Below are positions 1-21,824 of a stretch of DNA of 64,000 bases, one piece after another. The position numbers and the translations under genes were made by a program. Each line of letters opens with the position of its first letter. The first letter of the stretch is position 1. Origin of the DNA: Microcella sp. GTDB lineage: Bacteria > Actinomycetota > Actinomycetes > Actinomycetales > Microbacteriaceae. Location: contig NZ_JBHYEO010000010.1 of assembly GCF_051860105.1 (NCBI RefSeq), positions 2,832 to 66,831 on the forward strand, in the 5' to 3' direction. The notes below the pieces were generated by a model. That model was not told the origin of the DNA, searched no databases, and saw nothing but the letters and a program-made list of their open reading frames with translations.

Positions 1-1022
1 ACCGCGTCAGGGTCCTTCGAGGCGACGGATGTCAGATAGTGCAGCGTTTCGGCGCGCGCCATCTGGTCGGTGTCGTCGACGAGGTCAGCGACTCTCAGGA
101 TCTCACCGTTGTCGCGACGACGAACGCGCAAGATGCCCGATTCCTCCTGGCTGATCACCTCGCCGATGGCGTCGAGGATGAAGCCAACTTCTTCGATCTT
201 GTCCTTGGTGGACTCGCCACTGTTGACGTTCGGGATGTGGACGATCGTCTTCTTGTCCAGATCGAGAATCTCGTGGATCGCGCTTGTATAGCGACCCTGG
301 TAGAAGTGGTGCCCGATACCGAGTGACTTCAAGTGTTCGTAGCCGTTGAGTTGGTCGTAGTAGTTGAAGGTCACCGGCGTGAACTTCGCCTCGTCCTCCG
401 GCACGAGGACAGGGACGGAGTCCCCGCGGAAGTATGAGCCGGTCATCGCCACGATGTGCGCGTCAGAGCCGGCCATCACGCCCTTGAGGAGCTCGCCGAG
501 GCGATTGCTGGCGATATCGGCCGAGACGTGATGGAACTCATCGATCGCGAGCACGACGCCGTCAAGAGCAGACGCAGCCAGCTTCTCGAAGGCGAAGCGA
601 AGTGTCGCGTGGGTGCAGACGAGCACCGCATCGGCTCCACCGAGAAAATCGATGAACTGCTGCACTTTGCTCAATGAGGAGCCCGGGGTGCAGAGGTTGT
701 TCTCGTCCTTGATGTTCCAGTCTGCAAAGAAGCCGAAGCGGGTCAGGCTGGTGCTGGCGAAGGAGCCTCCGATGGAGCGTTCGGGCACCGCAACGATGAC
801 CTTCTTGCGCCCCTGGTTGTACAGCTTGTCCAACGCGATGAACATCAGAGCACGCGACTTTCCCGACGCGGGCGGGGCCTTCACCAACAGGTATTGAGCT
901 GCGCGCTGCTCCCAGACACGTTGCTGCATCTCGCGCATGCCGAGCGCGTCGGTGTGCACGCTGCTACCAGTCTGCGCGTACTGAGCGTTGACAACATTTG
1001 CCGGCTTCGTATGCGGGGTCAC
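1..1022 (-). CDS. DEAD/DEAH (ResIII-like, SF2) helicase, N-terminal part only; C-terminus lies left of the window
   Basis: Not in the ORF track because it is open at the window edge. Manual minus-strand translation gives QYLLVKAPPASGKSRALMF (Walker A), VLAIDEFHHVS (DExH box) and IVAMTGSYFRGD (motif III). GTG at 1022-1020 overlaps the TGA stop of the upstream methyltransferase (GTGA). An alternative in-frame ATG is at 938. Confidence 0.8.
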   Translation of the reverse strand, partial: MTPHTKPANVVNAQYAQTGSSVHTDALGMREMQQRVWEQRAAQYLLVKAPPASGKSRALMFIALDKLYNQGRKKVIVAVPERSIGGSFASTSLTRFGFFADWNIKDENNLCTPGSSLSKVQQFIDFLGGADAVLVCTHATLRFAFEKLAASALDGVVLAIDEFHHVSADIASNRLGELLKGVMAGSDAHIVAMTGSYFRGDSVPVLVPEDEAKFTPVTFNYYDQLNGYEHLKSLGIGHHFYQGRYTSAIHEILDLDKKTIVHIPNVNSGESTKDKIEEVGFILDAIGEVISQEESGILRVRRRDNGEILRVADLVDDTDQMARAETLHYLTSVASKDPDA

Positions 1023-3703
1023 TTGAGCTTTTCCTCGGCGATCATTCGTTCGTACAGGGCGAAGAGGGAAGACAGCCTCTCTTCGTCGGTCTCAAAACCG
1101 CGCTTCAGGTAGACCGAGTCCACAAGTCTGTCGAGCTCTTGATGCGCCACTCGAAGATCGTGAGGCATCAAGTCTGGGTCATAGAGCTCAGCCAGGGTCT
1201 TCTCTGAGTGGTACTCGCGCACGTCGAGCACACGAAGCGCAGACTTAGTTAGCAGTTCCTTCGTGGACGCGCCGATCGACGGTACAGGGAAGTTGTTGTA
1301 GACGATGGTCGCCGAGTAGCGGTAGTCGGTCTTCAGGCGGCCACCCACGGCTTCCACCCAAACCATGTGCAGTCGCGATGTGAGCAAAGCGAAGACCCAC
1401 GGCTCCGCCCCGGATATCGCGTTTGCAGCGTCGGAGATGACGGTGTCCGGACCGAGGTATCCGACCGGTATGTATTCGCGCCGTTCTGAAGAGACGCGCG
1501 GCACAATAATGGACTCAGTTGACTTGTGGCGCGCCTCGCCAAACCGCCAGGGAACGCTGGCGAGCTTCTTGGTGGATTCCCGATCGCTTGCGAGCCGATG
1601 TTGACGCACTCGCTCAATCCGCTGGGCGACGCTGTCAACCTCCATAGCGGTCTCGGCTGTAGAGGCCGTGAGCCAGAGTGCATACCTCTCTCCTCCGCCG
1701 ATGAACTCGATGGAGCCAAGGAAGCGCTTGATCCAGGGAAGCGCCTGGGGTGCTCGCTCCACGAGGGTTTGGCGTTCTGCCGGGCTAAGGACAAGGCCAC
1801 CGTTGTCATTGGGCATGCTTCCAAAAGTCATCACCGGGATGGCGGAGAGAGGTTTGCGTCGCGTTCCGATGAAGATGTTCTCGCCATCCGCGAGGTACCC
1901 GTTGATGTTCTTGGCTTCGATGCGGATGTCATCGGTGAAGATGAACTTGGCGCGCTGGCTTCTGTTACGGAGACTGATCACGGCCACGGTCACTCCCGCA
2001 TTGCGCCTGGCGTTGTTCTCCCACTTGAAGGAGGTGTAAGCGAAACCGATCTCCAGCCCGCTATCGAAGATCGCAGGAAACATGAGGCCGGGGTGCTCGC
2101 CTTGGGCAACAGAGTTGGTCGTTACGAAGGCCACCTCTGCCCGTGTGCCAACAATGTAGTCGGCCGCTTTGGCAAACCAAATCGCGATGTAGTCGAGGTT
2201 CTTCGAGTACGGCCGCAACCCAAACGCGTAGTCGAAGTCGGCCTTCATGTCCTTGCTCTGACCCCTGGCGCCCTTGTACGGGGGGTTTCCGATGAGATAT
2301 ATCTCCTCGGCACTAGTGTTCGGGCAGACCGATTGCCAATCTGTTCTCGCCGCATTGCCCTGTTTGATCTGGCCGGTCTCCTTCAGGGGGATGAGGGGCA
2401 AGTCGATGCCGAACTTCTCGCGAAACTCGACGTTCATCTGGTGCTTGGCGATCCAGAGGGACAGGATCGCTACCTCGACGGCGAAGTCGTCGATTTCCAA
2501 GCCGTAGAAGTGCTCGACGTTGATGCGTGAGCCGAGAAGGTCGAGTGTGTACTTGTCCCCCTGCAACGCTTGAAGGCGCTCCAGGATTGCGTGTTCCAGC
2601 TTGCGCAGCTCCTTGTAAGCGATGACAAGGAAGTTGCCCGAACCGCAGGCCGGGTCGAAGACCTTGATCTGAGCGATTCGCCGGAGGAGAGCATCCAGTT
2701 TCGGAGCACTGTCGAAGGAGTCATCGAACTGTTCCTTCAGGCCGTCGAGAAACAGGGGCTCGATGGTCTTCAGAATGTTCGGCACCGAGGTGTAGTGCTG
2801 GCCGAGATCGGAGCGTTGGCCGGGGGTGACGACGGCCTGGAACATGGAGCCGAAGATGTCGGGATTGATCTCATTCCACAGAAGCCGACCGCTCTCTAGC
2901 AGCAGCTCCCGTGCCTTCTTGTTGAAGGCCGGCACCGTGTGATCCGCTGTGACAGTGAAGAGGCGCCCATTCACGTAGGGGAACCCCGCGAGGTGCGTCG
3001 GTTTGGCTGCGGGGTCTGCGATGTCGAGTGCGGTGAAGAGATCGGACAGGAACTGGCTGACGTCGGAGCCGTCGGGCTGCGTCAAAGTCGCGACTGCGTC
3101 CGTGAACTGACCGGTGCGGAAGATGCCGGTGTCTTCGGCGAAGAAGCAGAACAGCAGGCGGGTGAAGAAGACGTTGAGGGCGTGGCGGCCGATGATCGTG
3201 GTGTTCAGCTCGGGGTTGACCGCCAGGAGCTCGTCGAAGAGCTTCGCCATGCGCTCGGCTGCCTTGACATCGGCGTGCGCCTCGGCAACGTACTGTGCTT
3301 TCTCCATGCCGGCCCAGGGCAAGAAGAAGGTGAAGTGCTTGTCGATCTCGGCGATGGGGATGGCGAGGGTTTCACTCGTCTTGGTGTCCACCGCGAGCAG
3401 GTCGGTGTAGTTGGTGACGATGACGAAGCGCGTGCCATAGCGCACGACCGACGGGGAGCGTCGGAGCTCGTCGATGACTCCGTAGAGGTCATCTTCTGTG
3501 TGCTTGAAGTAGACGACGCTCTTCTGTGCGACCTCGGTCGCCGGGTTATCAGCGACGTTGAGGGAACCGTTTCGCAGGCGCGTGATGTTGCTCGCCGAGC
3601 GGCCGTAGGCCGTCAGGAGTTCGAAGATGAACTCTCGGTCGTAGCTGGTGCGTCCGCCAAGTGGTCGGACTCGTTCTTCGACTGCCTTGAGGTTGAGTCT
3701 CAC
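1019..3703 (-). CDS. MmeI/PglX-like single-chain N6-adenine DNA methyltransferase with fused target-recognition region
   Basis: 894-aa ORF with a GTG start. Motif I is KVFDPACGSGNFLV and motif IV is LIGNPPYKG. The N-terminal block RFVIVTNYTDLLAVD and the long C-terminal region resemble the MmeI-family layout. Confidence 0.85.
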   Translation of the reverse strand: MRLNLKAVEERVRPLGGRTSYDREFIFELLTAYGRSASNITRLRNGSLNVADNPATEVAQKSVVYFKHTEDDLYGVIDELRRSPSVVRYGTRFVIVTNYTDLLAVDTKTSETLAIPIAEIDKHFTFFLPWAGMEKAQYVAEAHADVKAAERMAKLFDELLAVNPELNTTIIGRHALNVFFTRLLFCFFAEDTGIFRTGQFTDAVATLTQPDGSDVSQFLSDLFTALDIADPAAKPTHLAGFPYVNGRLFTVTADHTVPAFNKKARELLLESGRLLWNEINPDIFGSMFQAVVTPGQRSDLGQHYTSVPNILKTIEPLFLDGLKEQFDDSFDSAPKLDALLRRIAQIKVFDPACGSGNFLVIAYKELRKLEHAILERLQALQGDKYTLDLLGSRINVEHFYGLEIDDFAVEVAILSLWIAKHQMNVEFREKFGIDLPLIPLKETGQIKQGNAARTDWQSVCPNTSAEEIYLIGNPPYKGARGQSKDMKADFDYAFGLRPYSKNLDYIAIWFAKAADYIVGTRAEVAFVTTNSVAQGEHPGLMFPAIFDSGLEIGFAYTSFKWENNARRNAGVTVAVISLRNRSQRAKFIFTDDIRIEAKNINGYLADGENIFIGTRRKPLSAIPVMTFGSMPNDNGGLVLSPAERQTLVERAPQALPWIKRFLGSIEFIGGGERYALWLTASTAETAMEVDSVAQRIERVRQHRLASDRESTKKLASVPWRFGEARHKSTESIIVPRVSSERREYIPVGYLGPDTVISDAANAISGAEPWVFALLTSRLHMVWVEAVGGRLKTDYRYSATIVYNNFPVPSIGASTKELLTKSALRVLDVREYHSEKTLAELYDPDLMPHDLRVAHQELDRLVDSVYLKRGFETDEERLSSLFALYERMIAEEKLK

Positions 3704-3837
3704 TGGGTGGCTCCTTCGATGCTTTCGATCGACGCTTGCGGTGCTTCGCGCGCCGGTGTGGATTCTTGACTGCGGCCGGGCCGGTCGAGTCCCGGTCCCG
3801 TCGTGTCGATGGCAAGTAGTCCATTCATCGGAGTTGC

Positions 3838-5826
3838 CTAATCGCCAAGGCCGTATCGGGCAACCTTCAAGAGCTGCTCGGCCGCCTGAGCGCTCGCCTG
3901 CTGCACTTTTGCGGCTGCTGCGTCAGCAGCGTGCAGGTCGCGCAGCTGTTGAGCGATTTGTGCTTGCGCGGCGATAGGTAGCAGGGGGATCTCGATGTCC
4001 TTGACGGAGAAGATCCCGGGGCCGGTTTGCAGCGCTTCGTTCCAGCTGCCGGCGATGCAATGCGCGAGGTACTCGGCGTTGATCTCGTCCGAGTTGGGCG
4101 TGAGGACGTAGACGCCTCGGGCTGGTACTCGGCCGCCCTCGTGGTCGACGCGAGAGTAGATGCGAGACAGTCGCGTCACCAGCACATCCCCGGGGGAGGT
4201 TTGCCTCTCCGATCCCAAGTTCGCTGAGCTCGTGGGCACAGGTGGGAACCCGTCTCGAATGTGTGAAGGGCGAACGACGAGGTCGTCATCGACTTCGATG
4301 GCAGCGATTCGCCCGGCGGAGAACTGCACGGTGCCATGCTCGACGAGTTCGTTGAGCCGAACTACCCGTGGCGGTTCGGTGTGGACGGGAGCGGACACTT
4401 CCGGCAGGTTCGCGATCGCAGCGCGCGCATGGCTGAGTTGTTCGATCGCTCTGCTGACGGCTCTGGCGGTAGGCGCCTCCGCAACGGCGCCGACCCATCG
4501 CGCGGGGGTCAGGGCCGCGTCGGCGGCAAGGATCTCGGCGATTGGCACGCGTCGGTTCGGGGCATCGATCTTGTCGGACGTGAGCCAGGTGTTGATTTCA
4601 TCTTCGGGACTCTCAACGCTGGTCGCGTCGATGATGTGCACGTACCCGGGCTCCTCGTTCGCACGGGGTGATCCGAGGACCCAGAGGGCGAGAGGAATCG
4701 AAGTGTTCGGCAGAAGCTTGCCGGGTAGGCCGATGATGACGCGGACGAGGTCGTTCTTGAGAATCTCCGCGCGGATCCGTCCCTCAGTGCCGGGGCGGGC
4801 GAGCGGGGTTCGCGTTGTCAGAACGTAGCCTCTTCCCCCGGGCGCCAGGTGCGCTAGAACGTGTTGAATCCAGGCAAAGTCCGCTGAGGATCGTGGGGGG
4901 ATGCCGTAGCGCCAGCGCGGGTCGGTGATCGCACCGGCTGCGTCCCATCGAAGGGCGTAGGGCGGTTCGGCGACGATGAGGTCTGCCCGAAGCTCAGGAT
5001 GAGGATCGAAGGCGAGAACGTCGGCGAGGGCGAAGGTGGCCTTGATGCCTCGAAGTCCAGCTCGCACTGCCGCAATGAAGAGCGCGTCTGCGTTGACGTC
5101 GACTCCGGTGACGGTGGAGTGCATGAGGTTGCGGGCGGCGAGAGTCTGGGCTGCTTCCGAGATGCCACAGGCGGGGTCATAGATGGTGGTGCCGTGGTCT
5201 GCGGCGGCGACGAGGATTGCGGCGGCGCGCGAGGTTGCGAGTCCGTGTGCGCTACCCGCGCGGGCGGCGGCGGCACCCGCGCGATCGAGCAAGAGGGTGC
5301 TCGCGTCGATCAGTGATGAGGGTTCAACGGCAGAGATAGCGTTGGCGAGAGTGAGGAGCCCGACGGCGGAGGGGCGGTCGCTTCGGCGGGCTGCGGTGCG
5401 CGCGATCACATTCGTCGGCGCGATGGATTCCAGCACGTGGTTGAGCCGCTCAGCATCGATGGCGTTGACGGTGTTGGGGTTGCGCAGGTCAGCCCACAGT
5501 GCGGTTGCGGCGTTGTCGCCGCGGTGCGCGAGGTAGCAGATCGCGATAAGGCGGTGGGCTTCGAATACGAGCTCGTCGATTTCTGTAGTGTCGCGAAGCG
5601 AATTGAGGCTCGACCAGACCTGGAGCGCGGCGCTTTCGTTGAACGGCTTGTTTTGCGACTGCAGCCACGCGGTCACGTGGGAGCGTTCGAACATGGGGCG
5701 GCCCTCAGTGCCGCCTGCGGGAGCGGGGAAGTCGAAGTAGCGGGTGCGCCAGTTGCTGACCGCTGCGCGGGATACGCCGGCGAGCTCGGCGATGTCGCTC
5801 GGGCTCAGCATACCGTCGTTGTTCAC
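3838..5826 (-). CDS. HTH-domain / N6-methyltransferase-like / HsdS-like specificity-domain fusion protein
   Basis: 662-aa ORF. N-terminal HTH is LSPSDIAELAGVSRAAVSNWRTRY. Motif I-like TIYDPACGISE. Motif IV reads LIVAEPPYALRW (EPPY instead of N/DPPY). The C-terminal half ends in the HsdS-type conserved helix IEIPLLPIAAQAQIAQQL. Confidence 0.8.
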   Translation of the reverse strand: MNNDGMLSPSDIAELAGVSRAAVSNWRTRYFDFPAPAGGTEGRPMFERSHVTAWLQSQNKPFNESAALQVWSSLNSLRDTTEIDELVFEAHRLIAICYLAHRGDNAATALWADLRNPNTVNAIDAERLNHVLESIAPTNVIARTAARRSDRPSAVGLLTLANAISAVEPSSLIDASTLLLDRAGAAAARAGSAHGLATSRAAAILVAAADHGTTIYDPACGISEAAQTLAARNLMHSTVTGVDVNADALFIAAVRAGLRGIKATFALADVLAFDPHPELRADLIVAEPPYALRWDAAGAITDPRWRYGIPPRSSADFAWIQHVLAHLAPGGRGYVLTTRTPLARPGTEGRIRAEILKNDLVRVIIGLPGKLLPNTSIPLALWVLGSPRANEEPGYVHIIDATSVESPEDEINTWLTSDKIDAPNRRVPIAEILAADAALTPARWVGAVAEAPTARAVSRAIEQLSHARAAIANLPEVSAPVHTEPPRVVRLNELVEHGTVQFSAGRIAAIEVDDDLVVRPSHIRDGFPPVPTSSANLGSERQTSPGDVLVTRLSRIYSRVDHEGGRVPARGVYVLTPNSDEINAEYLAHCIAGSWNEALQTGPGIFSVKDIEIPLLPIAAQAQIAQQLRDLHAADAAAAKVQQASAQAAEQLLKVARYGLGD

Positions 5827-6353
5827 GCAACCTCCATGGCGACAGCGCTGGGGCCGGGGCGCCGCTCGCTCTCAAGGTAGACGACTTTGGTCGCGGCCAA
5901 CCGCAGTCGATTCGACAGCGACTCTGCGTGAGCAACCACTGTCGTCGGCAGACCAAGTGACGCGAGCTCGGCGACGCGGTCAGCGAACTTGCCGTCGCCA
6001 GACACAATCACCAACTCATCGAAGCGAGCCACAACAGCGTCGTTGAGCTCATCGAGCAGAGCCAGTTCGGCTCCATCCGGACCCGAGCGAACGACGTACC
6101 GCACGCCGGTCCAGGAGCAACCGACCTCCAGAAGTCCGTTGTGGGCAACGCCGATGACAACGAGGTCGCCCTCTTGCACGGGATAGGCGGCAGCAAGTGC
6201 TGCGCGTGCACCCAACACATCGGTGTTGCAGGGGCAGGGGCCGCCGACTGCGTTCTCGATGTCGACGAGGTAGAGGCAGCGGATACCTGCCTGGCGGACG
6301 GGGGGCGGCGTCACCAACTCGGGAAGCTGGCTCGCAAGGAGAGAGGAACTCAC
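5823..6353 (-). CDS. NYN / LabA-like PIN-fold domain protein
   Basis: 176-aa ORF. LYLVDIENA and LVIVSGDGKFAD match the NYN/LabA-like signature. Its TGA overlaps the GTG start of 3838..5826 (GTGA at 5823-5826). Confidence 0.7.
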   Translation of the reverse strand: MSSSLLASQLPELVTPPPVRQAGIRCLYLVDIENAVGGPCPCNTDVLGARAALAAAYPVQEGDLVVIGVAHNGLLEVGCSWTGVRYVVRSGPDGAELALLDELNDAVVARFDELVIVSGDGKFADRVAELASLGLPTTVVAHAESLSNRLRLAATKVVYLESERRPGPSAVAMEVA

Positions 6354-6596
6354 ATGAGGAAGGTATCCCGTCTCGTTCTGGCTGTCAAGTGTTTCTAATT
6401 CACACGTCAGAATGCCCCAGAGCTGGTTGGTCTTGAGGCGTGTCTTGACTATTGCTCATGCCGTTTTTACTCAATCAAAACAGCAAACCGCAGTGTTCAT
6501 GGGCCTTTTGGGTTGTAACTTACAGCCCTGCTCACCCCACGGATCATTACCTCTTAGTGAAGCTGCGTGAGCTCTGACAACGTCATTGCCGCGTCT

Positions 6597-6651
6597 AAGT
6601 TCACAGTCCTGTGTGTTGCTGTGAACTTTGGTGTCGTTCACATTGTGAACG
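6597..6651. promoter_or_regulatory. Two adjacent perfect palindromes built on GTTCACA/TGTGAAC (operator-like) in the spacer upstream of the NYN-methyltransferase operon
   Basis: AAGTTCACAG (6597-6606) pairs with CTGTGAACTT (6619-6628). CGTTCACA-T-TGTGAACG spans 6635-6651. Both read directly from the sequence in an AT-richer non-coding spacer. Confidence 0.4.
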
Positions 6652-6791
6652 CCCATGCCGCGCGTGATGGGATTCCCAACGAGCTGACTTCCACCACTTT
6701 TATCGAGCGATGCTCGTTTAGTGCCTGCGAGGGGACCGCGTTGTTGCCCCAGATCGACCCTTTGCCTAACCGTCATGTGAAGGCGGCGTTC

Positions 6792-6814
6792 AGTGGCTAG
6801 GTCACCTAGCCACT
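6792..6814. terminator. Perfect 11-bp-arm palindrome/hairpin about 100 nt downstream of jetD
   Basis: AGTGGCTAGGT-C-ACCTAGCCACT read directly. It lies between the jetD stop (6911) and the next operon. There is no clear T tract, so it could also be a protein-binding site. Confidence 0.4.
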
Positions 6815-6910
6815 AGGGGTCGCCCTCCAGATCCAGCCTCGATCAAATCGGGAGATTGCACTTTCGAGCGCTACGCCGCTCATTTGTGCAACCTGGGTGT
6901 AGCGCGCGAT

Positions 6911-8044
6911 CTAGAGCCGCGTTCGAAGGCAATCGTCGATGCGCTCCAACGCGTAAGCCCAGTCGATGCGTTCTTGTTCGAGTCGCACGTTGCCTTGGTC
7001 TCGAAGAGTGGCGAATGCCTCATGCTCCGCCGGCGTCAGGAACGCGAGCTTCCCCTGGTGGGGTTGTGGTTCAGTGCCCCAGAGGTCGCGATGCGCGTAC
7101 AGGGTCTCCGAATCCATCAAGCAGGATTCAAGGCTCAGGCCCGCACCGCGCGCGTGGCTGAGAATGCGGAACCCGTGGGAATCCAAGTCGCCCCAGTAGA
7201 TTGCCGGCCTCGACTTGATCCACCCGACCAAACTGAGCGTCGGCGCCACGTTCCCGCGCCCATCGACAGCGATTACGCCTTGCCGCTCTGGGAGCGCGAG
7301 AAACGTCTGCAGGTTCTCAACGATCAGCACTGTGCTCGGCTTGAGGTCCCAGTTGTTGAGATCAGAGAGTGGTGCGGTCACGTCGCCCAAACCTGCTGGC
7401 GCCAAAGATCGATCGAGGAAACGGATACGCACGAGAGCAGGCGGGCGCCGCAACGACAACCCGTCGCCACCGACCAAAGCCTCGACGACGGCGCGGTGCC
7501 GTTCAAGCCACTTAGAGTCAATCCCGCGAATGGGCAGCTCGCGGATGTACCGGTCAGACATGGGGTTGTCTTGAAGCCACCGGGACACATCGCGCAGGCG
7601 GAGGAAGTCTGTGGTGTCGAGCTCGCCGATCGTTCGAGCGTGCTTGGCAATCGCCGGCTTCAGGGACGCCTGTGGGGCGAGAGTCTCCGAGAGCTCATCC
7701 GCACGGCTCCGCCACCGCTTCCACTGCGCCCCAACTTGGGCGACCTCGGTGAGCGCATCAACTCCGGCGACGCATGCGCGTGCGGGAACGACTTGCTCGC
7801 CGACCCGTCCCCATCGTCTCGTCTCCCAGACGAGCTCGATCGCGCTGTCCTCGTTTGCCCGCCACGAATCGACCCAGCCCGTTGCCGCCGAGTAGTCGCG
7901 CAACACCTCTGCCTCGGTCGGCGGGTGGAGCGGGATATCCAGCGTTGCCGTCGACGTGTCGCCTGCAGCCCATTGCCGACCGTCTCGAACCCATAGTTTT
8001 CGGGCACGCTCTCGAAGGTCATTGACTGTGACGGGGGTGGGCAT
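6911..8044 (-). CDS. jetD: Wadjet JetD (DUF3322 + DUF2220 Toprim-like nuclease subunit)
   Basis: 377-aa ORF. The C-terminal block VLIVENLQTFLAL ... IYWGDLDSHGFRIL is typical of the JetD/MksG Toprim-like domain. It is last in a four-gene jet operon. Confidence 0.9.
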   Translation of the reverse strand: MPTPVTVNDLRERARKLWVRDGRQWAAGDTSTATLDIPLHPPTEAEVLRDYSAATGWVDSWRANEDSAIELVWETRRWGRVGEQVVPARACVAGVDALTEVAQVGAQWKRWRSRADELSETLAPQASLKPAIAKHARTIGELDTTDFLRLRDVSRWLQDNPMSDRYIRELPIRGIDSKWLERHRAVVEALVGGDGLSLRRPPALVRIRFLDRSLAPAGLGDVTAPLSDLNNWDLKPSTVLIVENLQTFLALPERQGVIAVDGRGNVAPTLSLVGWIKSRPAIYWGDLDSHGFRILSHARGAGLSLESCLMDSETLYAHRDLWGTEPQPHQGKLAFLTPAEHEAFATLRDQGNVRLEQERIDWAYALERIDDCLRTRL

Positions 8045-8047
8045 CAG

Positions 8048-11000
8048 CTAGAACTCGACGTTCGTCAACTGGGAACCCTTGCGGTCGGGGTTGGTCACGA
8101 CGGTGACGGCGCCGATGTAGGGCTCCAGAGTTTGCAGGAGCTTTCCCGGTGTAGCGAGGATCATCTGGAAACCGAAGGCGACGAAGATGTCCATCGCCAT
8201 GCGCGTGTAGTCGGCATCTGCTTTGTCAAAGGCCTCGTCCAAAACGACTGTGCCGTAGTTGGAGAAGTCAGCTTCCGGCACCGCCAGTTGATAGCGGAGG
8301 GCCGCAGCAAGACAGAAGACCACAAGCTTCTGCCGTTGGCCGCCTGAGAGCCCCGCACTGGAGTCGTGGACGTTGTGCACCTTGCCGTTGCGGTCAACCT
8401 CTTCGGCAATGAACGACACGTGCTCGCGAGTGTCCAGCACTCGTGTGCGCCACTCTCGGTCGACCCTGTCGCTTGAGCCGAGTCGATGCATGATGTTCGC
8501 AAGCACTGCGAATCGATGCTCTGCCGCCGCGAAATCTTCGTTGGCCCAGTTTCCGTCGACGATCGACTTCAGGTCGCCGAGGAAGTCTTTCACCTCCTGG
8601 GTGCGACGAAGACGGACTCTGATGTTCAGGTAGCGATCCCGATCGAACGGCGACCGCCCTAGGGACTCGTTCACGGGCGTGATCCGACTTTCGATTTGTC
8701 GAAGCGCGCCGGTGAGGTCATCGCGCAGAAACGTCACGCTTTCCTTGGATCGTGTGTCGAGCAGTCGGCGGAAGTTCGCTTCGTGCTCGGGGAGCCCGCG
8801 GGACTGGATTCCTGCAAGCAGGTCCCGGTAGCCACTTCGATCCTCGATCCGTGACGAGAGGTTCGCGTTGGTGGCGATAGCGCGCCACTCGTTGTTGAAG
8901 TCGCGGGCACGCTCGACAAACTCAGCGATTGATACCTCGACCAGGGTTCGTAGCTTGTCTCCTTCCGCGTGAAGGATGCTCTGGACCCGGAACGCAACCG
9001 CGTTGACCTGATCGAAGCGAATGATGTTCTGCTGTCGCCGGAAATGCTCATCGAGCTTCGATTTCACGTGGTCCGAAAGGTCGGCGATGGATTGTTGTGC
9101 GAGTTCGTCGATGGACGCCTGGAGTAGAGCCTGCTTTTCGAGTGCCACCGCGCGCTGCCCTCCAGCTCGCTCCGCCTTACCACGTAGCTGGTCCCGTTCT
9201 TGGACGAGGGCCGATTCCGCTTGGCTTGCTCGTCCCAGGTCACTGTCCGGCGAGACGACCTGATCGTAAAGTCCCTGAAGTGTGGCGATGCGTCGTTCGG
9301 CACTCTCAGCGTCGATCTCTGACCATGGCAGGGTGAGCACGTCTTCGAAGAGCCCTTTGCGGGTGACATGGCGGTCCCGGTCGGCTGACGCATCGTTGGC
9401 TTGGCGGTCCAGTTCGACGAGCTCGGCGCCCACGGTGGCCAGTTGCCGCTGGAGTTCGTCGCGTTTGGGTTCGATGTTGCCGCCGAGCACCCATCTCGCT
9501 CGGTCGTTGACGTCGTGACGATCAGCTTTGATGTACCGGCGTGCCGCCCGCTTGATGAGGCCGTTGACGGTGATGCCTCGACTGACGTCCTCCAATTCAT
9601 CTGCGCTGTCAACGCAGGTGAAGTCGAACTCGTCACTGAGGCGCCGGTTGAGGTACTCGGCGAAGATCCCTTCCGCCACATCGACCCGATACACGAGCGA
9701 TCGGTCATCTCTGATTGGCAACGGCGCGTGGCTGGTCGAGGGGACCGCGTCGATGGTGAGGTTGACGCCGAGGTGCCTCTCATTGACGGCTTTGCGCACT
9801 GCCGCGATCTCGTCATCCCTCACGAGAAGCGCCGTGGCAATCGGGGCGAGAGCTCGTTCGATCGCGCCGCTCCACTGCGCGTGATCGTGGCGCACGGAGA
9901 TGAGCTCTCCCGCGAAAGGCATCAGCTCCTGGGGGATATTGAGGTCTCGGCAGAGCTGGTCCCGCACATTTAGTAGACGAGGGTTCATGTTGCTCTTGTG
10001 CAGATTGAGCGTCTTGAGATCGGATTCGAGCTCGCGAAGCGTCTTTCGCGTCAGGGACAGACGCTCCAAGAGCGCATGGTCCAGCGCGTCCGGCACCGGC
10101 ACCAGCAGGGCTTCTCGGGCCATCGTGCACAGATCGGCGTACTCGCCTTCCGTCTCTGCCATCTGGAGCCCGGCGCCGGTGAGTCGATTCGCGAGGCGCC
10201 CACGACGGCTAAGGACCTCCTGGAGAGCGCGTTTGGCGTCATTGATGCGCGCCTGGTGAGGTGCGAGGTCTCTGCCCCCGAGCGCGTTGACTCGATCTCG
10301 TGCGGCAGTTAGTTGCTCTTCGGCTTCGTTGAGAGCCTTTTGCGTTTTGGTGAGATGGGCTGCGGCTTTGGCAAGGTCAGTGTTCGCGTCGATGAGCGCC
10401 TTGCGTGACAAGTCCAGTTGAAGGCTGACGGCGAAGGGTTGAACTGCGTCGGCGAGGTCAGAAAGGCTCGTCGCTTCTGCTTGGGCTTTCTCGTAGGCCT
10501 CAGCTGCGTTCGACACCTTCAGGAGGGCATCGCGTTGTCGGCGCAAGTCAACGACATGGTCGTAGGCGTCTCGGAGCTCGCCGAACTGTTCCACAGCACT
10601 GTCAGCCCGCTTGAAGGTCGGGGGTTCGTCGAGCATGAACTTCCGAAACAACGTGTCGAGGGTGCCGAGGTTCTTCGCCGCCTGAGTTTTGTGCAGAAGC
10701 TGTAGAGCGGTTTCGTTGCCGATACCCAATAGCCGCTGTAGTCGCTGGAAGTAGCCGCCGTGCTTGCCAGTGGTCGTCACGATCACGGGGTGGTGGTCGG
10801 CTTCGAGGCGGCGGGCGTCGATTCCGCCGCTTGCGTAGGGAGCGTATGTCATCAGACCGTCAAGGGTGCGGGTGATGACGTTCATCTCCTTGAGGTCGCT
10901 CGAATCGGTGCTCGTCCCGCGCAGGTGAAACAGACGAATCAGTGAGACGGGGTCGTGCTCTTCGTTCTCGAATCGGAGAAGGATTCCGCTCCATGTCGCG

Positions 11001-11356
11001 TTGGTGCGGAGGTAGGTGGCGACGGTGCGATCCTCGATCTCGTCGGCTTCCCTGCTCCATGCCCCCCTCACGTAGGTGACCCACGTCCGATCAGAGGCTC
11101 GTCCAACCGACTCCTGCGCAGCGGCATTGAAAGTCACCGCGCCCTTCGGAGTAAGCACTGCCGCGATGGCGTCGAGGAGCGACGATTTGCCTGATCCGGA
11201 AGCGCCGGTGACGAGGTGACCCTTTCGAGCTACGTCGACGGCGTGGAATCCATCGAAGGTTCCCCAGTTGACGACCTCGATGCGGCTCAGACGCCACTGT
11301 CCCCGATGGAGTACACCGTCCGAAGTGGTGGCATCGTTGAGAGCGAAGAGCGTCAC
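8048..11356 (-). CDS. jetC: Wadjet JetC (SMC-like ABC ATPase)
   Basis: 1102-aa ORF. Walker A is GASGSGKSSLLDAI. It has a long coiled-coil middle, signature LSGGQRQKL and Walker B VVLDEAFDKAD. Confidence 0.92.
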   Translation of the reverse strand: MTLFALNDATTSDGVLHRGQWRLSRIEVVNWGTFDGFHAVDVARKGHLVTGASGSGKSSLLDAIAAVLTPKGAVTFNAAAQESVGRASDRTWVTYVRGAWSREADEIEDRTVATYLRTNATWSGILLRFENEEHDPVSLIRLFHLRGTSTDSSDLKEMNVITRTLDGLMTYAPYASGGIDARRLEADHHPVIVTTTGKHGGYFQRLQRLLGIGNETALQLLHKTQAAKNLGTLDTLFRKFMLDEPPTFKRADSAVEQFGELRDAYDHVVDLRRQRDALLKVSNAAEAYEKAQAEATSLSDLADAVQPFAVSLQLDLSRKALIDANTDLAKAAAHLTKTQKALNEAEEQLTAARDRVNALGGRDLAPHQARINDAKRALQEVLSRRGRLANRLTGAGLQMAETEGEYADLCTMAREALLVPVPDALDHALLERLSLTRKTLRELESDLKTLNLHKSNMNPRLLNVRDQLCRDLNIPQELMPFAGELISVRHDHAQWSGAIERALAPIATALLVRDDEIAAVRKAVNERHLGVNLTIDAVPSTSHAPLPIRDDRSLVYRVDVAEGIFAEYLNRRLSDEFDFTCVDSADELEDVSRGITVNGLIKRAARRYIKADRHDVNDRARWVLGGNIEPKRDELQRQLATVGAELVELDRQANDASADRDRHVTRKGLFEDVLTLPWSEIDAESAERRIATLQGLYDQVVSPDSDLGRASQAESALVQERDQLRGKAERAGGQRAVALEKQALLQASIDELAQQSIADLSDHVKSKLDEHFRRQQNIIRFDQVNAVAFRVQSILHAEGDKLRTLVEVSIAEFVERARDFNNEWRAIATNANLSSRIEDRSGYRDLLAGIQSRGLPEHEANFRRLLDTRSKESVTFLRDDLTGALRQIESRITPVNESLGRSPFDRDRYLNIRVRLRRTQEVKDFLGDLKSIVDGNWANEDFAAAEHRFAVLANIMHRLGSSDRVDREWRTRVLDTREHVSFIAEEVDRNGKVHNVHDSSAGLSGGQRQKLVVFCLAAALRYQLAVPEADFSNYGTVVLDEAFDKADADYTRMAMDIFVAFGFQMILATPGKLLQTLEPYIGAVTVVTNPDRKGSQLTNVEF

Positions 11357-11970
11357 TCGACCCCACCACCCTGCCCGCTTGCCGCGTCGTCGTACGTCGC
11401 CTGGATCGCGGCCACCCGCTCAGCGTCGATGAGGAAGCGCACGATCGGGGAGATCTCGGCGCGGCCCTCTTCAGTGGTGTGAAGGAGGCCGAGCGTGTTC
11501 ATGTTCGACCAGGAGGCGTTTACGCGCTTGCGAAAGTCGGACTCGTCTCGACCCTTGCGATATACCGAGAGTTGGTCGGCCAACTCGTCCTGCCCGACGA
11601 TCACTCGGCCACGGCCCTCTTCGGCGAGAAGGGTTTGGCGCAGCACGAGAAGCATGGCCGTATCCATGAACGTCAGGGGCCTGGTGCGCACCACTTCTGG
11701 TGCGCCGTCTACATCGACCGGTCGCACGAACGCGATCTCGTGTTCCCGGTCGATCACGACGTCGAGGAACAGGTCGTGGAGTCGAGAGCGAATCGCTCGC
11801 TCGTCGGCGAGCAGGGCTTCCCACAGCTCTCTCTTCCTTGCCTGCGAGAGGTAGGGGCCCTTGACCAGATCGACCAGCACACGGCGAGAGCTCTCGCGGA
11901 GCCCACCGGTGTCGCCGACCCACAGAGCCTCGGTCTGGATCGTGTCGATGGTCGGATCGTGGTCGTTCAT
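11353..11970 (-). CDS. jetB: Wadjet JetB (DUF4194, MksE-like)
   Basis: 205-aa acidic protein in the canonical position between JetA and JetC. Start and stop overlap the neighbours (ATGA at 11967-11970, GTGA at 11353-11356). Confidence 0.85.
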   Translation of the reverse strand: MNDHDPTIDTIQTEALWVGDTGGLRESSRRVLVDLVKGPYLSQARKRELWEALLADERAIRSRLHDLFLDVVIDREHEIAFVRPVDVDGAPEVVRTRPLTFMDTAMLLVLRQTLLAEEGRGRVIVGQDELADQLSVYRKGRDESDFRKRVNASWSNMNTLGLLHTTEEGRAEISPIVRFLIDAERVAAIQATYDDAASGQGGGVE

Positions 11971-13430
11971 GTGATCCTTCCAACGAACCTGTGCTGGTCA
12001 ACGTCTGCAGCGCGCTCAACACCGTCTGTCCCAGCCCAAATGAGTCGCTCCGTTTCCTCGTCGACGACACCATGGACGGCGGCGAGCACGAGTAGGCCGA
12101 CGACACTCGCCACCCCTTGCGACGCAGGGAACTGAGCGAGCACCTCGCCGGCAGTGGCCGTGGGGTGTTCCGCAAGAACGGAGTTGACCTGCTCAACGAG
12201 CTCATCGAAGTCAATCTCGGTGAGGCGGGCTTGCGCTCGGAGCGCCGCGAGGTCGGCGACTCCGGTCTCGTTCATGGTTACCTCGGACGAAGCATCGAAC
12301 TCAGACGGGTCATGAACGCGCAGAACACCCACACTCTTCAGGGCGACTCCGGTCAGGGCGAGATCGAAGCCGAGCCTCTGGTAGGGCTTCACCACCTCAC
12401 TAGCGGCGAGCGCGTGCTGCATTGCCTCTTGCAGAACTCCACGAAGTACTCGATCGCGGCCGTAGTCCTGCGACTCCACATAGCGTCGCAAGCCGCGGGC
12501 GAACTCCGTGGCAACACCCTGGATTTCTGAGGTTCGCCCCTTCAAGGTCGCGACGAAGTGCCGAAGGGCACGGCGTTGCTCAGCTGTGAGTTCGAGGGCG
12601 AAATCTCGTTCCAGGATCTGATCGATGTTGTCCTCGAACTCGCCGCTGACTGCTGGATCGAGAACGAGGTCCGTGAACGCTTTGAAGGTTCTGCCGGCAT
12701 CACTCGTGGCGATGAGATCCACGCCGCGGAAGATGTCGTCGAGTACGGTGCCCTGGGATGCGTCAGACTCGACGATCTTCTCTCTCAGTTTGGCGTTGAG
12801 GGTTTCGAACTCTGCGCGGACTCGTGTGAAGTCGTCCGGCACTGCCGCCGCTTGTGCGAGGAGGTCTCGCACCCGCTCTGCAGCTCGCGCGCCCGCCATG
12901 GGCTCATCGTCGCCGGCTTCGATTGAAATGATCGCGGCGTCGATGCGTTCCCGCTCCCGACGCAGGCGTTCCAGTCGCCGCTGCGAGAGTGGGTCTGTAT
13001 CGATCGCGAGCTGGCGCAGCTGTGCGGCGAGACTCGCAAGGCGCGACTCCGTTGCCGATTGGCGCGGAGCCTCAACGTCATCCAGAAAGCGGATCGCGAG
13101 AAGAGCGTGGCTGCTGAGCTCATAAGTTTCGCCCCGTGCGTCTTCACTCGCGCGTCGCACGAGAAATCCGGCTGTCCGCCATTGCGCCACGTATCCGCGA
13201 GCGCTGTTCTTCAACTCGAATCCGACCGCTCGAAGCTGCTCCAAGTCGGCGTCGAGGCGTTCATGCAACTCCTCTGATCCCAACCTGCGTTCTTCACCAC
13301 CGAGATGCTCAGCGAGCAACGCCATAACAGCAGCAGCGTGCGCAGCGGTGTCGCCCGCGCGAAGTAGCCGCAGCGATGCGTCGTCGTCGATGAGCTGACG
13401 TAGACGCAGGGCTCTCGTATTCGCGGGCAT
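11967..13430 (-). CDS. jetA: Wadjet JetA (DUF3375, kleisin-like MksF homologue)
   Basis: 487-aa ORF, first gene of the operon. Size, helical Arg/Glu-rich composition and position match type I Wadjet JetA. Confidence 0.88.
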   Translation of the reverse strand: MPANTRALRLRQLIDDDASLRLLRAGDTAAHAAAVMALLAEHLGGEERRLGSEELHERLDADLEQLRAVGFELKNSARGYVAQWRTAGFLVRRASEDARGETYELSSHALLAIRFLDDVEAPRQSATESRLASLAAQLRQLAIDTDPLSQRRLERLRRERERIDAAIISIEAGDDEPMAGARAAERVRDLLAQAAAVPDDFTRVRAEFETLNAKLREKIVESDASQGTVLDDIFRGVDLIATSDAGRTFKAFTDLVLDPAVSGEFEDNIDQILERDFALELTAEQRRALRHFVATLKGRTSEIQGVATEFARGLRRYVESQDYGRDRVLRGVLQEAMQHALAASEVVKPYQRLGFDLALTGVALKSVGVLRVHDPSEFDASSEVTMNETGVADLAALRAQARLTEIDFDELVEQVNSVLAEHPTATAGEVLAQFPASQGVASVVGLLVLAAVHGVVDEETERLIWAGTDGVERAADVDQHRFVGRIT

Positions 13431-13554
13431 AGTTCACTTAGTGTGTCGCGCCGCACCGACAGCTGACCGTGCGAACACACAGATCGAACGCATTGGGTTC
13501 GCGAGCGACGGACACGTGAGCGCCAATGTCAACACTTCCTCGTAAGTTGATCTC

Positions 13555-14385
13555 ATGACACTGCGCGTCTCTGGCCGAATCCGTGGGCTGTTCCGAGACC
13601 AAGCGAGAGGAATAGTCCTGGCCGACATCGATCGAATCTGGCAAGCAGAAGGATTCGCTCCGAGGGTCACTACCAGCGTGCTGAGCAGCCAAAGAATGAG
13701 TCGATGGTCGGAGTACGAGGCGGCGGTCGACTGGCTGGACGACTCGCACACTCGAAGGGTTCTGCGAGTGTACGAGAGCGTGCTGCTTGAATTTGCTGCC
13801 GAAGAGGGACTAGAGCGATTTGAGAGAGCTCTTGGTCTGGACGGGTTCACGATTGATGGGAACCGACGGATCGCGCCAGCGAAGCTCGATCTGGCCGGAC
13901 TATCGGGGCTTAGTGCCCTTCGTGATGCCGATGGCATTCGGGAGGCGTTTCGCCGCATCGAATTGTTGATGGATGAGGACCCGGCCGGAGTCGTCGGTGC
14001 GAGCAAGGAACTTATCGAAGCCACCGCGAAAAGCATTGTGGCCGCGTTTGAGGAGCCATTGATGGGAAACGAAAAGACTCCCGCGCTTGTCGCTCGTGCT
14101 CAAGCCCTGCTCGGTCTTGGGGCAGGGGATGTTACGAATTCGATCGACTCCGCGCCCGCGGTTCGCAGGGTGCTTGGCGGCCTAGCCTCAATTGCCCAGG
14201 GAGTGGCTGAGCTGCGTAACGCTGAGGGAGGTGGGCACGGACGCTCTGCGCGGAGCAGGCTTACGGCGCGGCACGCTCGTCTCGCGTTCAATAGCGCCCG
14301 CGCGTGGTGCGAGATCGTGATCGACACCCATGCAGATCCAGAGGCACCGTTTCGTGCAACACGCACGCCCGCATCCGGCAGCTGA
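13555..14385 (+). CDS. Abortive-infection family protein with C-terminal Abi_C / HEPN-like domain
   Basis: 276-aa ORF. C-terminal VAELRNAEGGGHGRS carries an R-x6-H HEPN-type motif embedded in the Abi_C-like G-x-GHG context. Divergent from jetA. Confidence 0.75.
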   Translation: MTLRVSGRIRGLFRDQARGIVLADIDRIWQAEGFAPRVTTSVLSSQRMSRWSEYEAAVDWLDDSHTRRVLRVYESVLLEFAAEEGLERFERALGLDGFTIDGNRRIAPAKLDLAGLSGLSALRDADGIREAFRRIELLMDEDPAGVVGASKELIEATAKSIVAAFEEPLMGNEKTPALVARAQALLGLGAGDVTNSIDSAPAVRRVLGGLASIAQGVAELRNAEGGGHGRSARSRLTARHARLAFNSARAWCEIVIDTHADPEAPFRATRTPASGS

Positions 14386-19717: not shown

Positions 19718-20770
19718 CTAGACAGTCGGCGAGGTCACGTGCGCGTACACGTCGCCGACTTCACCAAAGTGGGAGGCGAATGCTTCCGTCCGGCCTCCGA
19801 GATAGATCAACACCGATGGGAACTGAGCCTCACCAGCCGAATCGCTGAACCGCAGTCGACCCCACAAGAAGCATCTTGGATAGGGCGCCAGAACGCGCAT
19901 CCACTGAGTGTTCGTCCGAGCAGGAAGCAACGCAATCGCTTCGGGGACATCTCCCGCTAGGTGATGGTCGTGAAGCTTCTGCACCCACTGCCGCGGCGAC
20001 CGATCAAATGGGGGGTTCAGGAACACTCGACCCCGCCACGCGTGCGCCAGCCCGTCGTCGCTGGCAGTGAAGTGGGTCTTCGCTGGCACCCAAGGAGCCT
20101 CGTGTGAGTTCGAGGCGGGGTCCAAGTCGATCGCGCCCAGGAACGACTCGATCCTATGAAGGAGATCTTTGGGTGTGTACCACTCCTGCGACCGAGAAGA
20201 CCGACGCATCCGGTAGTACTCCGCCGCGAGCACGCGGTCTTTACCGGCCGCGCGGATCAGCTCGGCAGCTGTTCGGATCGCCAGGATGCCAGCCTCGACG
20301 TCGTGAAGCATGTCTTCTGGACCGTGTTCCAGTAGGACGCGGCCGTCGCGAACGCTGCGCTCCGACACCCCCAACTTGTCGGCTGCTTGCCGTTGTGTGA
20401 CCTGATCAAGCGGCGCGTGTGCCGCTTGTGTCGCGCGTGCGCCGCCGTGTCCAAAGGTGGCCAGGCGGGCTGCGACCACGGCTCGTTGGCTTTCGGTGAG
20501 GTGGCGTCGGTGCAGATTGATGTCGACAACCCACGCCAACAGCTCGCTCTCTGAACGGGTCGTCGTGACGAACCGCGGTTGAACACCTGCGGCCTGGCAG
20601 GCGAGGAATCGGTTCCGGCCATCGACAATCGCGCCCGAAGTATCGAGGACGATCTGTTCGCGTAGCCCATGTGCGCGAATCGACTGGGTCAACTCACCAA
20701 GCGCATGCTGATCCATCAAGGGGAAGAAGTTGGCGAAGGCGTGCCACTGTCGCGCTGTCGACTCTTCCAC
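19718..20770 (-). CDS. ParB-like N-terminal domain fused to phage-type (Dam-like) N6-adenine DNA methyltransferase
   Basis: N-terminal IVLDTSGAIVDGRNRFLAC is a ParB/Srx-type motif. C-terminal WYTPKDLLHRIESFLGAIDLDPAS ... VFLNPPFDRS is typical of phage DNA N6-adenine methyltransferases. Confidence 0.8.
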   Translation of the reverse strand: MEESTARQWHAFANFFPLMDQHALGELTQSIRAHGLREQIVLDTSGAIVDGRNRFLACQAAGVQPRFVTTTRSESELLAWVVDINLHRRHLTESQRAVVAARLATFGHGGARATQAAHAPLDQVTQRQAADKLGVSERSVRDGRVLLEHGPEDMLHDVEAGILAIRTAAELIRAAGKDRVLAAEYYRMRRSSRSQEWYTPKDLLHRIESFLGAIDLDPASNSHEAPWVPAKTHFTASDDGLAHAWRGRVFLNPPFDRSPRQWVQKLHDHHLAGDVPEAIALLPARTNTQWMRVLAPYPRCFLWGRLRFSDSAGEAQFPSVLIYLGGRTEAFASHFGEVGDVYAHVTSPTV

Positions 20771-20921
20771 CTAGTCAGTCTTCCCGGCCGAAAGGTTGCC
20801 GCTACGAGAAGACCATGTCTTCTGCGGACCATTCGGCCATGGTCGCCCTAGTTGCTGCGAAAGACGTGACCGGTTGCTGGTCGTCTCCGGGACTTCGACA
20901 CGCTGGACGGCCACGTGCCAC

Positions 20922-21824
20922 CTACAAGAGCGCGGTCGCCGGCGCCGTCATCCCGCGCAGAGTGCCAAGCTCGGCACTGTAGACGAATAAGGGCATTTCG
21001 GTTGCGGTTGCGAAGGCGATGGCTTCGGCTGTGTAACCCGCGCTGGTGAAGAAGAGGGCGCGCATGCCGCGGGATGCGGCGACGCCGAACAGCTCTCGAA
21101 CCTCAACCACGCTGACCTTGCCCTTGTAGTGCTTCACCTGCGCAACGGCGGTTTCAGAAGTGGCGTCGATGCCTCCGTCTGCACGTTCGGGTGTTGCTTG
21201 AGCGTCAAGGAAGCCGAGGTGGCGCATCCATTCGACAACAAGGAGTTCCGCGCCGCGAGGCGACGCTCCGTACGGCAGCGGTTGCGGAGCCGGGGCCGGT
21301 CGGCTGCGAATGAGCGCTGCTCGGGCTGCTTCTGCAGCAGCTTGCTCGGCTGCTTGCTCAGCGAAATGGCGCTCGCGGCTGTCTTCGATCTGTTGCTCGA
21401 ACGGCGCGAGGAACTCTTCGATGCGCTGCTCATACTGGTCTCGGAGCTCTCCCCAATCGTCGTCCCCGATGTCGACAGGACTGCTCACGCGACTGTCGCG
21501 AGTGGTACCTACCCCTTCTTCGCTGGCCATTCGGTGCATTGTTGCGGCGAAGATATCGACCTCGGGTGAGTGGTGTCCGCTGAGCTCACGGGGCAATTCT
21601 GTTGTCGAATACCTATTGTGTTTGTGGCGGCGGTGGAACACGAGTTCCCGAGTCGTGAGGCAGTACTGGATGCGCCGCCACCGGTCGTTCAGTCTGTTCG
21701 ACGTCAGTCGATTTAGATCCTCAAACGTGGGCTGCGCGATCGCGCCGCTGCGGTACGCGTCGATGGCGATCGTTGACAAAGCGATGACCGCGTTGTCAAT
21801 CTCCTCAGAGGTGAGGAGCGTCAT
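20922..21824 (-). CDS. Mrr-type (PD-(D/E)xK) restriction endonuclease domain protein with uncharacterised N-terminal region
   Basis: The C-terminal ~110 aa (AELLVVEWMRHLGF ... GGIDATSETAVAQVKHY ... ALFFTSAGYTAEA) match the Mrr_cat layout. The N-terminal ~190 aa carry no recognisable motif. Confidence 0.75.
   Translation of the reverse strand: MTLLTSEEIDNAVIALSTIAIDAYRSGAIAQPTFEDLNRLTSNRLNDRWRRIQYCLTTRELVFHRRHKHNRYSTTELPRELSGHHSPEVDIFAATMHRMASEEGVGTTRDSRVSSPVDIGDDDWGELRDQYEQRIEEFLAPFEQQIEDSRERHFAEQAAEQAAAEAARAALIRSRPAPAPQPLPYGASPRGAELLVVEWMRHLGFLDAQATPERADGGIDATSETAVAQVKHYKGKVSVVEVRELFGVAASRGMRALFFTSAGYTAEAIAFATATEMPLFVYSAELGTLRGMTAPATALL

Follow-up and report, generated by a model that had tools for sequence, protein, structure and literature searches.

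Do the four genes at the left end of this Microcella sp. DNA form one restriction system, or two systems that happen to lie side by side? The stretch analyzed (64,000 nucleotides; contig NZ_JBHYEO010000010.1 of NCBI RefSeq assembly GCF_051860105.1, positions 2,832 to 66,831; hereafter the window) begins with four minus-strand open reading frames (ORFs), placed by the ORF listing of the window at 3-1022, 1019-3703, 3838-5826, and 5823-6353. In the direction of transcription they encode a 176-aa NYN (PIN-like) nuclease-fold protein, a 662-aa fusion of a helix-turn-helix (HTH), an HsdM-like methyltransferase fold and a single HsdS-type target recognition domain (TRD), an 894-aa homologue of MmeI, and a superfamily 2 (SF2) helicase of the DExH type. 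The NYN and methylase-like genes share a GTGA start/stop overlap at 5826-5823 (...ggttgcGTGAacaac), and the MmeI-like and helicase genes share another at 1022-1019 (...ctcaaGTGAccccg). The second and third genes are kept apart by a 134-nt spacer (3704-3837).

An earlier note on this DNA had taken the four genes for a single unclassified, BREX-like operon. Its account of the parts was borne out: the strand of the four genes, both GTGA overlaps, the second methyltransferase-like protein with an HTH and an HsdS-type TRD, the ResIII-type helicase, the NYN RNase-fold protein, a restriction-like character without PglZ or BrxC in the ORFs scanned, and a continuation of the locus beyond the left edge. 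The single operon itself had to be given up, because the four genes are not co-conserved (0 of 80 loci) and the locus, with its probable left flank, fits the described YeeABC type. We conclude, with a probability of about 0.78, that two independent defence modules, a YeeA-YeeB-YeeC trio and an NYN/HTH-methylase cassette, lie head to tail in a defence island. We regard their adjacency as island stacking rather than as the layout of one machine, because the two do not occur together elsewhere and the nearest relatives of the cassette stand alone.

An MmeI homologue with a degenerate nuclease domain

The 894-aa protein (1019-3703, minus strand) contains FDPACGSGNF and GNPPYKG and matches all five Pfam domains of MmeI (MmeI_N, 4.9e-26; hel spacer, 3.7e-23; MTase, 4.8e-96; TRD, 4.1e-78; C, 1.7e-20). 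Its match to the MmeI structure 5hr4 covers residues 91-888 (E 3e-168), and the phmmer alignment of the two proteins begins only at residue 91 of the query and residue 108 of MmeI, past the catalytic D70, E80, and K82. A true MmeI-type protein, found by chance at locus L120, aligns with MmeI from residue 7 and has D70/E80/K82 (D...ExK) intact. In an alignment of the window protein and its close homologues (the YeeA set) with the L120 protein, D70 falls inside an 8-residue deletion and E80 stands opposite an Ala. Judged from these alignments, the PD-ExK nuclease motif is lost from the N-terminal domain in the 894-aa protein, which thus lacks the N-terminal PD-ExK triad that defines self-cutting MmeI-type Type IIL/IIG enzymes. 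The earlier description of a canonical methyltransferase of MmeI/PglX architecture therefore holds for DPACGSGNF and NPPY and fails on the word canonical, because the N-terminal nuclease motif is gone.

A three-gene unit of the YeeA-YeeB-YeeC class

The helicase gene (3-1022, minus strand) is open at the left window edge, and its N-terminal 340 aa carry GKS and DEFH motifs and match DEAD (4.5e-8) and ResIII (7e-4). This fragment was scanned against one genome per species, which gave 80 loci at 75-89% identity, in Actinomycetota and a few other phyla. An MmeI-like gene lies directly upstream of the helicase in all 80. The complete helicase of the relatives is ~655-660 aa long, and an ORF of 380-450 aa follows it in most of them (72 of the 75 loci with a full-length helicase), usually with overlapping stop and start. 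One example of this third protein matches MUG113 (1.9e-13) and T5orf172 (4.6e-10), both domains of the GIY-YIG superfamily. The flanks of the 80 loci contain no recurrent gene family beyond these three, except a PDC-S11/NucS-like gene in 9 loci. Since the helicase is always preceded by an MmeI-like gene and in most loci followed by a 380-450 aa protein, and the other flanks are unconserved, the conserved left unit is, on the evidence of synteny, one of three genes, and the window edge falls in the second. Homologues of the NYN and HTH-methylase genes were absent within 10 kb of the helicase at all 80 loci.

Morgan et al. (2009; PMC2731913) described a second group of MmeI homologues that lack PD-ExK and "invariably" have genes for a DEAD helicase (YeeB) and a GIY-YIG protein (YeeC) alongside. 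Three features of this class are present here: homology to MmeI in four domains (spacer, methyltransferase, TRD, and C-terminal), a first ~100 residues without PD-ExK, and an adjoining downstream helicase. Because homology to MmeI, loss of the nuclease motif, and three-gene synteny match that group, we assign 3-3703 and what lies beyond the left edge to the YeeA(DnmA)-YeeB-YeeC class, of which the window would hold an apparently intact actinobacterial copy; the Bacillus subtilis proteins were compared by description. Annotated plasmids across phyla, including one of Moraxella osloensis, carry the same trio, and M. osloensis, a species named for this group by Morgan et al., has a 48% identical helicase within a methylase/helicase/GIY-YIG cluster. 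Later work on the class includes Nye 2020 (PMC7261158) and Fernandez 2023 (PMC9973331) and, after the 2009 paper, the finding that YeeA (DnmA) of B. subtilis writes N6-methyladenine (m6A) at GACGAG. The yeeAB genes of Vibrio crassostreae 7F1_18 mediate resistance to one phage group (bioRxiv 10.1101/2021.05.05.442762).

On these data, it is very improbable that we see an ordinary MmeI-type Type IIG/IIL enzyme in the 894-aa protein, acting alone beside an unrelated helicase. Such an enzyme would account for the five Pfam MmeI domains and for the PADLOC REase_MTase_IIG match (4.9e-290), but the PD-ExK residues are gone, the helicase lies directly downstream at every one of the 80 loci and overlaps by GTGA in the window, and no endonuclease activity was found for the two members of the group that were tested, YeeA and a protein of M. 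osloensis (Morgan et al., 2009; PMC2731913). The PADLOC label is a reflection of the methylase/TRD body that both kinds of protein share.

Among 62-75 actinobacterial copies, the median pairwise identity is 0.81 for the helicase, 0.69 for YeeA, and 0.60 for YeeC. Within YeeA, column conservation is lowest in the TRD (0.66), and the degenerate N-terminal domain reaches 0.82 within the clade. A conserved helicase together with a variable YeeA TRD fits a fixed motor with variable specificity. Some metagenomes that hold the cassette and the spacer at ~100% identity to the window have a yeeA N-terminal part that is 92-97% identical, and show no match at ≥90% to window positions 937-2340, which cover the TRD and C-terminal region of yeeA. 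This gap suggests either exchange of TRD alleles between close strains or low coverage.

Several further observations concern the trio. At locus L001 (Microbacterium sp. NIBRBAC000506063, 10001-11967), yeeB is split into ORFs of 370 aa and 275 aa and is probably frameshifted. YeeB proteins 77-83% identical to the actinobacterial ones occur in metagenome-assembled genomes (MAGs) labelled Chloroflexota, Campylobacter, and Pseudoxanthomonas (L013, L043, L053, and L063), which reflects either recent horizontal transfer or binning contamination. Gabija follows the trio in L004 and probably in L001. On plasmid pYHS1 of M. osloensis (L165), yeeA and yeeB are separated by RelB/YafQ and DarT/DarG (DUF4433 and macro), so that abortive-infection cargo can be embedded in the trio. 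In run X1, which holds the window at 100%, two more contigs (6.5 and 12.4 kb, of equal depth) have short yeeA- and yeeB-like matches, possibly from a second, diverged yeeABC-like system in the same genome.

The NYN/HTH-methylase pair is a cassette of its own

The 662-aa protein (3838-5826, minus strand) matches N6_Mtase (1.9e-34) and, at residues 540-655, Specificity_I, and its N-terminal HTH matches are weak (HTH_17, 0.0064; HTH_23, 0.0043; PADLOC mad1, 6.9e-5). Against a profile of its family, HsdM chains give 1e-46 and, over positions 542-666, HsdS chains give ~1e-10. In an AlphaFold model of the protein (predicted local distance difference test score, pLDDT, 89), a small helix/strand head at the N-terminus is followed by an HsdM-like core, a beta-rich domain, and then a 40-residue helix. 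The best fold match of this model is PacII M1 (7vru_A, E 1e-21), a subunit of the PacII M1M2S type I methylase. Motif I reads YDPACGIS and motif IV reads EPPY, not NPPY. YDPACG and EPP are invariant in 38 relatives, and every member of the large family found by a protein search has YDPACG and EPP(F/Y).

The 176-aa protein (5823-6353, minus strand) scores 26.7 bits against NYN, above the cut-off of 24.2. Its family (51 homologues) keeps D31-x-E33-N34, D96 (E in the window protein), and S-G-D120, and these conserved acidic residues fit an active PIN-like site. The GTG start of the NYN gene is overlapped, in another frame, by a two-codon mini-ORF (ATG TGA) at 6351-6356. Since the protein is conserved only from about residue 25, translation may in fact start further downstream.

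Operator-like palindromes lie 245-300 nt upstream of the NYN start, inside a probably non-coding ORF of 101 aa (6471-6776). They form an array at 6597-6651 of four TGTGAAC/GTTCACA half-sites with two perfect palindromes (inverted repeats I6-I8), and a further TGTGAAT stands at about 6405, ~50 nt upstream of NYN. Across 53 cassette loci, TGTGA/TCACA was seen 119 times upstream of NYN against 29 expected, a four-fold excess. The array at 6597-6651 is likely the operator of the HTH domain, which we infer would bind there.

The genomic context of the pair was sampled in assemblies (6 loci), metagenomes (77 loci), and one plasmid. In 38 of 50 cassette loci a same-strand NYN gene adjoins the methylase-like gene upstream, and in 4 more it is divergent. 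At 25 of 38 informative loci hsdM lies directly downstream of the cassette, mostly with a 4-nt overlap, and is followed by hsdS and hsdR; often there are two hsdM genes. Two paralogous hsdM genes with one hsdS are usual behind the cassette (L084, L089-L092, L095, L099, L101, L108, L113, and L143), an arrangement that resembles the M1M2S architecture of PacII (PDB 7vru), also the best fold match of the methylase-like protein itself. Other methylase/helicase sets follow the cassette in L105 and L126. An adjoining yeeA or yeeB homologue was seen at no locus found with the HTH-methylase.

The closest relatives of the window pair (64, 58, and 49% identity) are NYN/methylase pairs that stand alone among housekeeping genes, and a maximum-likelihood tree places the window protein inside this stand-alone clade with support of 100/99. 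The window pair has every feature of the cassette: a coupled upstream NYN gene, an N-terminal HTH, YDPACG, EPP(F/Y), a single C-terminal TRD, and a TGTGA-rich upstream region. The cassette is under clear purifying selection. The pair is thus a self-contained, conserved cassette with its own control region that recurs commonly in Actinomycetota. We found no publication or named system that covers an NYN plus HTH-HsdM-TRD pair.

N6A methylases normally have (N/D/S)PP(Y/F) at motif IV, and we know of no characterised N6A DNA methylase with E in this motif. This glutamate bears on a further explanation, according to which the cassette works as restriction-modification in minimal form, with a half-site methylated by the HTH-methylase-TRD protein and unmodified invaders attacked by the NYN protein; two m6A motifs would then be written at the locus. 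In keeping with this idea, the S-adenosylmethionine (SAM)-binding motifs I-III and the acidic-PP-aromatic motif IV are invariant under purifying selection, a TRD is part of the methylase-like protein, several genomes carry the pair on its own, and the catalytic acids of NYN are conserved. However, besides the glutamate of motif IV, the type I operons behind the cassette already hold one or two HsdM and an HsdS, so that a second modification would be redundant, and NYN/PIN-like domains are typically RNases and often toxins, in line with the PIN-superfamily survey of Matelska et al. (2017; PMC5499597). We therefore regard a minimal restriction-modification system as distinctly unlikely.

Two stacked modules or one composite system

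Several observations weigh against the reading of two independent modules. The trio and the cassette lie on the same strand, only 134 nt apart, and no terminator-like or sigma-70-like minus-strand site was found in the spacer, a weak negative because the scan consensus fits high-GC Actinomycetota poorly. In two metagenome runs that are unrelated to each other, unitigs cross from the yeeA start over the spacer to the methylase stop and differ from the window at 0-1 positions. The junction is no assembly artefact and is stable in this lineage. Given the common strand, the short spacer, the lack of a terminator-like site, and the junction kept in relatives, co-transcription and a functional link between the modules are conceivable. 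The habit of the cassette of heading ATP-dependent restriction operons also makes a link to the trio plausible, if improbable. Two further points concern the modules themselves. EPP(F/Y) could mark an inactive or altered enzyme, and published tests of the trio in B. subtilis showed no defence, so that activity of the window copy is not assured. Lastly, yeeC lies outside the window. A 22.8-kb contig of run X1, which holds the window at 100%, reaches ~2.8 kb to the left of the window and is colinear with Microbacterium L001 over the remainder of yeeB and on to L001 position 12661, within yeeC; this colinearity, at ≥80%, points to a probable yeeC.

A recombination breakpoint at the cassette end was also considered, from near-identical metagenome pieces that start at 3843-3845. 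This candidate was rejected: unitigs 3675-3851 and 3717-3867 span the site with 0-1 differences, which shows that the starts at 3843-3845 were mere unitig ends.

The points about the junction are those on which a single composite system would build, in which the cassette is an accessory of yeeABC (an anti-restriction guard, a controller, or a second specificity layer) and all the genes work together with yeeC. The shared strand, the 134-nt gap free of terminator-like sites, and the junction conserved in two metagenome runs would be expected of such a system, as would the position of the cassette before hsdM at 25 of 38 loci and before other methylase/helicase sets in L105 and L126. YeeABC loci can moreover host abortive cargo, such as DarTG in M. 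osloensis pYHS1, and PrrC and Ronin are precedents for guards. But the cassette is found at 0 of 80 yeeABC loci, and no other cassette locus has an adjoining yeeA or yeeB. The window cassette falls in a clade with strong support, the rest of which stands alone beside housekeeping genes. An operator-like region of its own precedes the cassette, and yeeA is served by a separate Shine-Dalgarno sequence, a GGAG ahead of its GTG start in the minus-strand spacer, which follows the cassette without overlap. On balance, we consider a composite system unlikely, and prefer two modules stacked in an island.

Proposed mechanisms

For the trio, we follow the proposal of Morgan et al.; the division of labour among the three proteins is our inference. 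YeeA would read an asymmetric site through its variable TRD and methylate one adenine on one strand of the host DNA. At an unmodified site, YeeA would license a coupled DExH motor, YeeB, and a GIY-YIG/T5orf172 nuclease, YeeC, to translocate and cut, and its degenerate N-terminal domain may serve to dock both partners. The trio would then amount to an ATP-dependent, split restriction system of type I/ISP-like character.

Our best guess for the cassette is a restrained toxin or guard. The methylase-like protein would bind DNA and SAM and restrain the NYN RNase, and loss of this control would release the RNase. The cassette would then act like a toxin-antitoxin pair or as an abortive guard akin to PrrC and Ronin, triggered perhaps by an anti-restriction DNA mimic or by foreign DNA.

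A more speculative extension, to which we give a low probability, is that the NYN/HTH-HsdM-TRD pair is a portable sensor-effector that backs ATP-dependent restriction and has here been recruited to YeeABC instead of type I. If so, the window would hold the first recruitment of the cassette outside type I. The cassette would then sense a feature common to type I and YeeABC, such as DNA-mimic anti-restriction proteins directed against gamma-class methylase/TRD bodies, or SAM depletion, and would release its RNase and abort the infection.

Island context

A complete type I Wadjet operon, jetA-jetB-jetC-jetD (6911-13430), lies directly upstream of the cassette on the same (minus) strand, and is given here for context only. 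It comprises jetA at 11967-13430, jetB at 11353-11970, jetC at 8048-11356, and jetD at 6911-8044, identified by PADLOC (JetA, 1e-174; JetB, 3e-72; JetC, E=0; JetD, 5e-116) and by matching Pfam domains. Further to the right, the island holds an Abi_C protein (13555-14385), a Dam-like methylase beside an Mrr_cat endonuclease (19718-21824), and a Tn7-like pair of TnsA-like and rve-integrase genes (22117-24871). The window also has a 622-aa protein with three DUF4379 treble-clef zinc-finger repeats (25926-27794) and two adjoining dynamin-like GTPase genes (MMR_HSR1/Dynamin_N; 27832-31775). Tn7-like genes also lie beside the NYN/methylase cassette in L084 and in the M. alvei plasmid pJCM12272 (L164). 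These Tn7-like neighbours suggest that the defence genes of the island are transposon cargo. Rfam gave zero matches across window positions 1-14000, an exact-sequence look-up of three window proteins gave no recorded entry, and a search for RNA-seq or long-read runs containing the locus was negative.

Significance and comparison with known systems

The trio is of a kind known since 2009, and what the window adds is a cassette in front of a module that is not type I. The result corrects a tempting reading of the locus as a new four-gene BREX-like system. YeeABC is widespread on plasmids and islands across phyla, its YeeB is unusually conserved (median pairwise identity 81%), and no biochemical mechanism has been shown for it since 2009. 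Defence-finding tools mislabel YeeA as a self-sufficient Type IIG enzyme, and would thereby overcount Type IIG and miss the helicase and nuclease partners. The cassette is the more interesting piece, common in Actinomycetota and with its unusual EPP(F/Y) motif. Its place before a non-type-I module and its autonomous nearest relatives both constrain functional models.

The partner genes of other multi-gene systems were sought in nine ORFs of 1-13430 and twenty longer ORFs further right. A BREX-, DISARM- or MADS-like system with its remaining genes outside the window would explain the weak partial matches to PglX, DrmMI, and mad1/mad2/mad5 models, but is hardly credible. The PglX scores are 30-35 bits against cut-offs of 500-900, and PglZ, BrxC, BrxL, DrmA, DrmB, and DrmC are absent from the scanned window ORFs; nor did the flanks of the 80 relatives show a recurrent gene of the BREX kind, the PDC-S11-like gene at 9 loci being the sole recurrent family outside the trio. 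For DISARM, the DrmMI match is only partial, over the TRD and C-terminal region, and the post-helicase gene encodes, in the example from the relatives, a T5orf172 protein and not DUF1998 or PLD. For MADS, a set of eight genes (mad1-mad8), NCBIfam MAD2 has a single match, to the MmeI-like protein, whose 17 bits fall far short of the cut-off of 720. The 662-aa protein matches mad1, mad2, and mad5 only at the level of domains and has no mad-type ATPase or nuclease partner as a neighbour, and the mad3 and mad8 matches fall on the ATPase head of JetC. A Type I restriction-modification system was likewise rejected: the 662-aa protein combines an HsdM-like fold with an HsdS-like TRD in one chain, and the locus has no HsdR.

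The closest known system is DnmA-YeeB-YeeC. The window shares with it an MmeI-like methyltransferase-TRD protein without PD-ExK, followed by a DEAD/DExH helicase and, in the relatives, a GIY-YIG/T5orf172 protein, as well as a variable TRD and a defence-island or mobile setting. It differs in being an actinobacterial copy with yeeC past the edge and in the NYN/methylase-like cassette in front, seen at 0 of 80 other loci. MmeI itself (5hr4) has homologous spacer, methyltransferase, TRD, and C-terminal domains, shares DPACGSGNF and NPPY, and likely shares single-strand modification, whereas the window protein is without catalytic D70 and E80, and its helicase and GIY-YIG partners would presumably do the cutting in trans. 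Type ISP (LlaGI/LlaBIII) and Type I enzymes likewise combine a methylase-TRD, an SF2 motor, and a nuclease, and ATP-driven restriction from asymmetric sites would be expected of the trio as well. In contrast to these enzymes, the trio consists of three separate polypeptides, its nuclease is of the GIY-YIG type and not Mrr/PD-ExK, it has no HsdR or HsdS, and translocation and cleavage have never been demonstrated for the YeeABC class.

The cassette is nearest in logic to PrrC/EcoprrI and to Ronin (RonA with HsdM/HsdS; Silas et al., bioRxiv 10.1101/2023.04.06.535777), where a toxic effector is tightly linked to type I methylase/specificity-like proteins. The proposed common principle, a functional analogy only, is that a methylase body restrains the effector until an anti-restriction factor interferes. 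The effector of the cassette is of the NYN fold, unlike an anticodon nuclease or a 61-aa membrane peptide, and its M and S parts, joined to an HTH in one protein, bear EPP(F/Y); RonA and PrrC are unrelated to it in sequence. PIN-superfamily nucleases in or beside hsdM/hsdS operons, sometimes without a restriction subunit, appear in the available part of the survey of Matelska et al. (2017; PMC5499597), and in that part the specific pair of NYN and HTH-HsdM-TRD proteins is not described.

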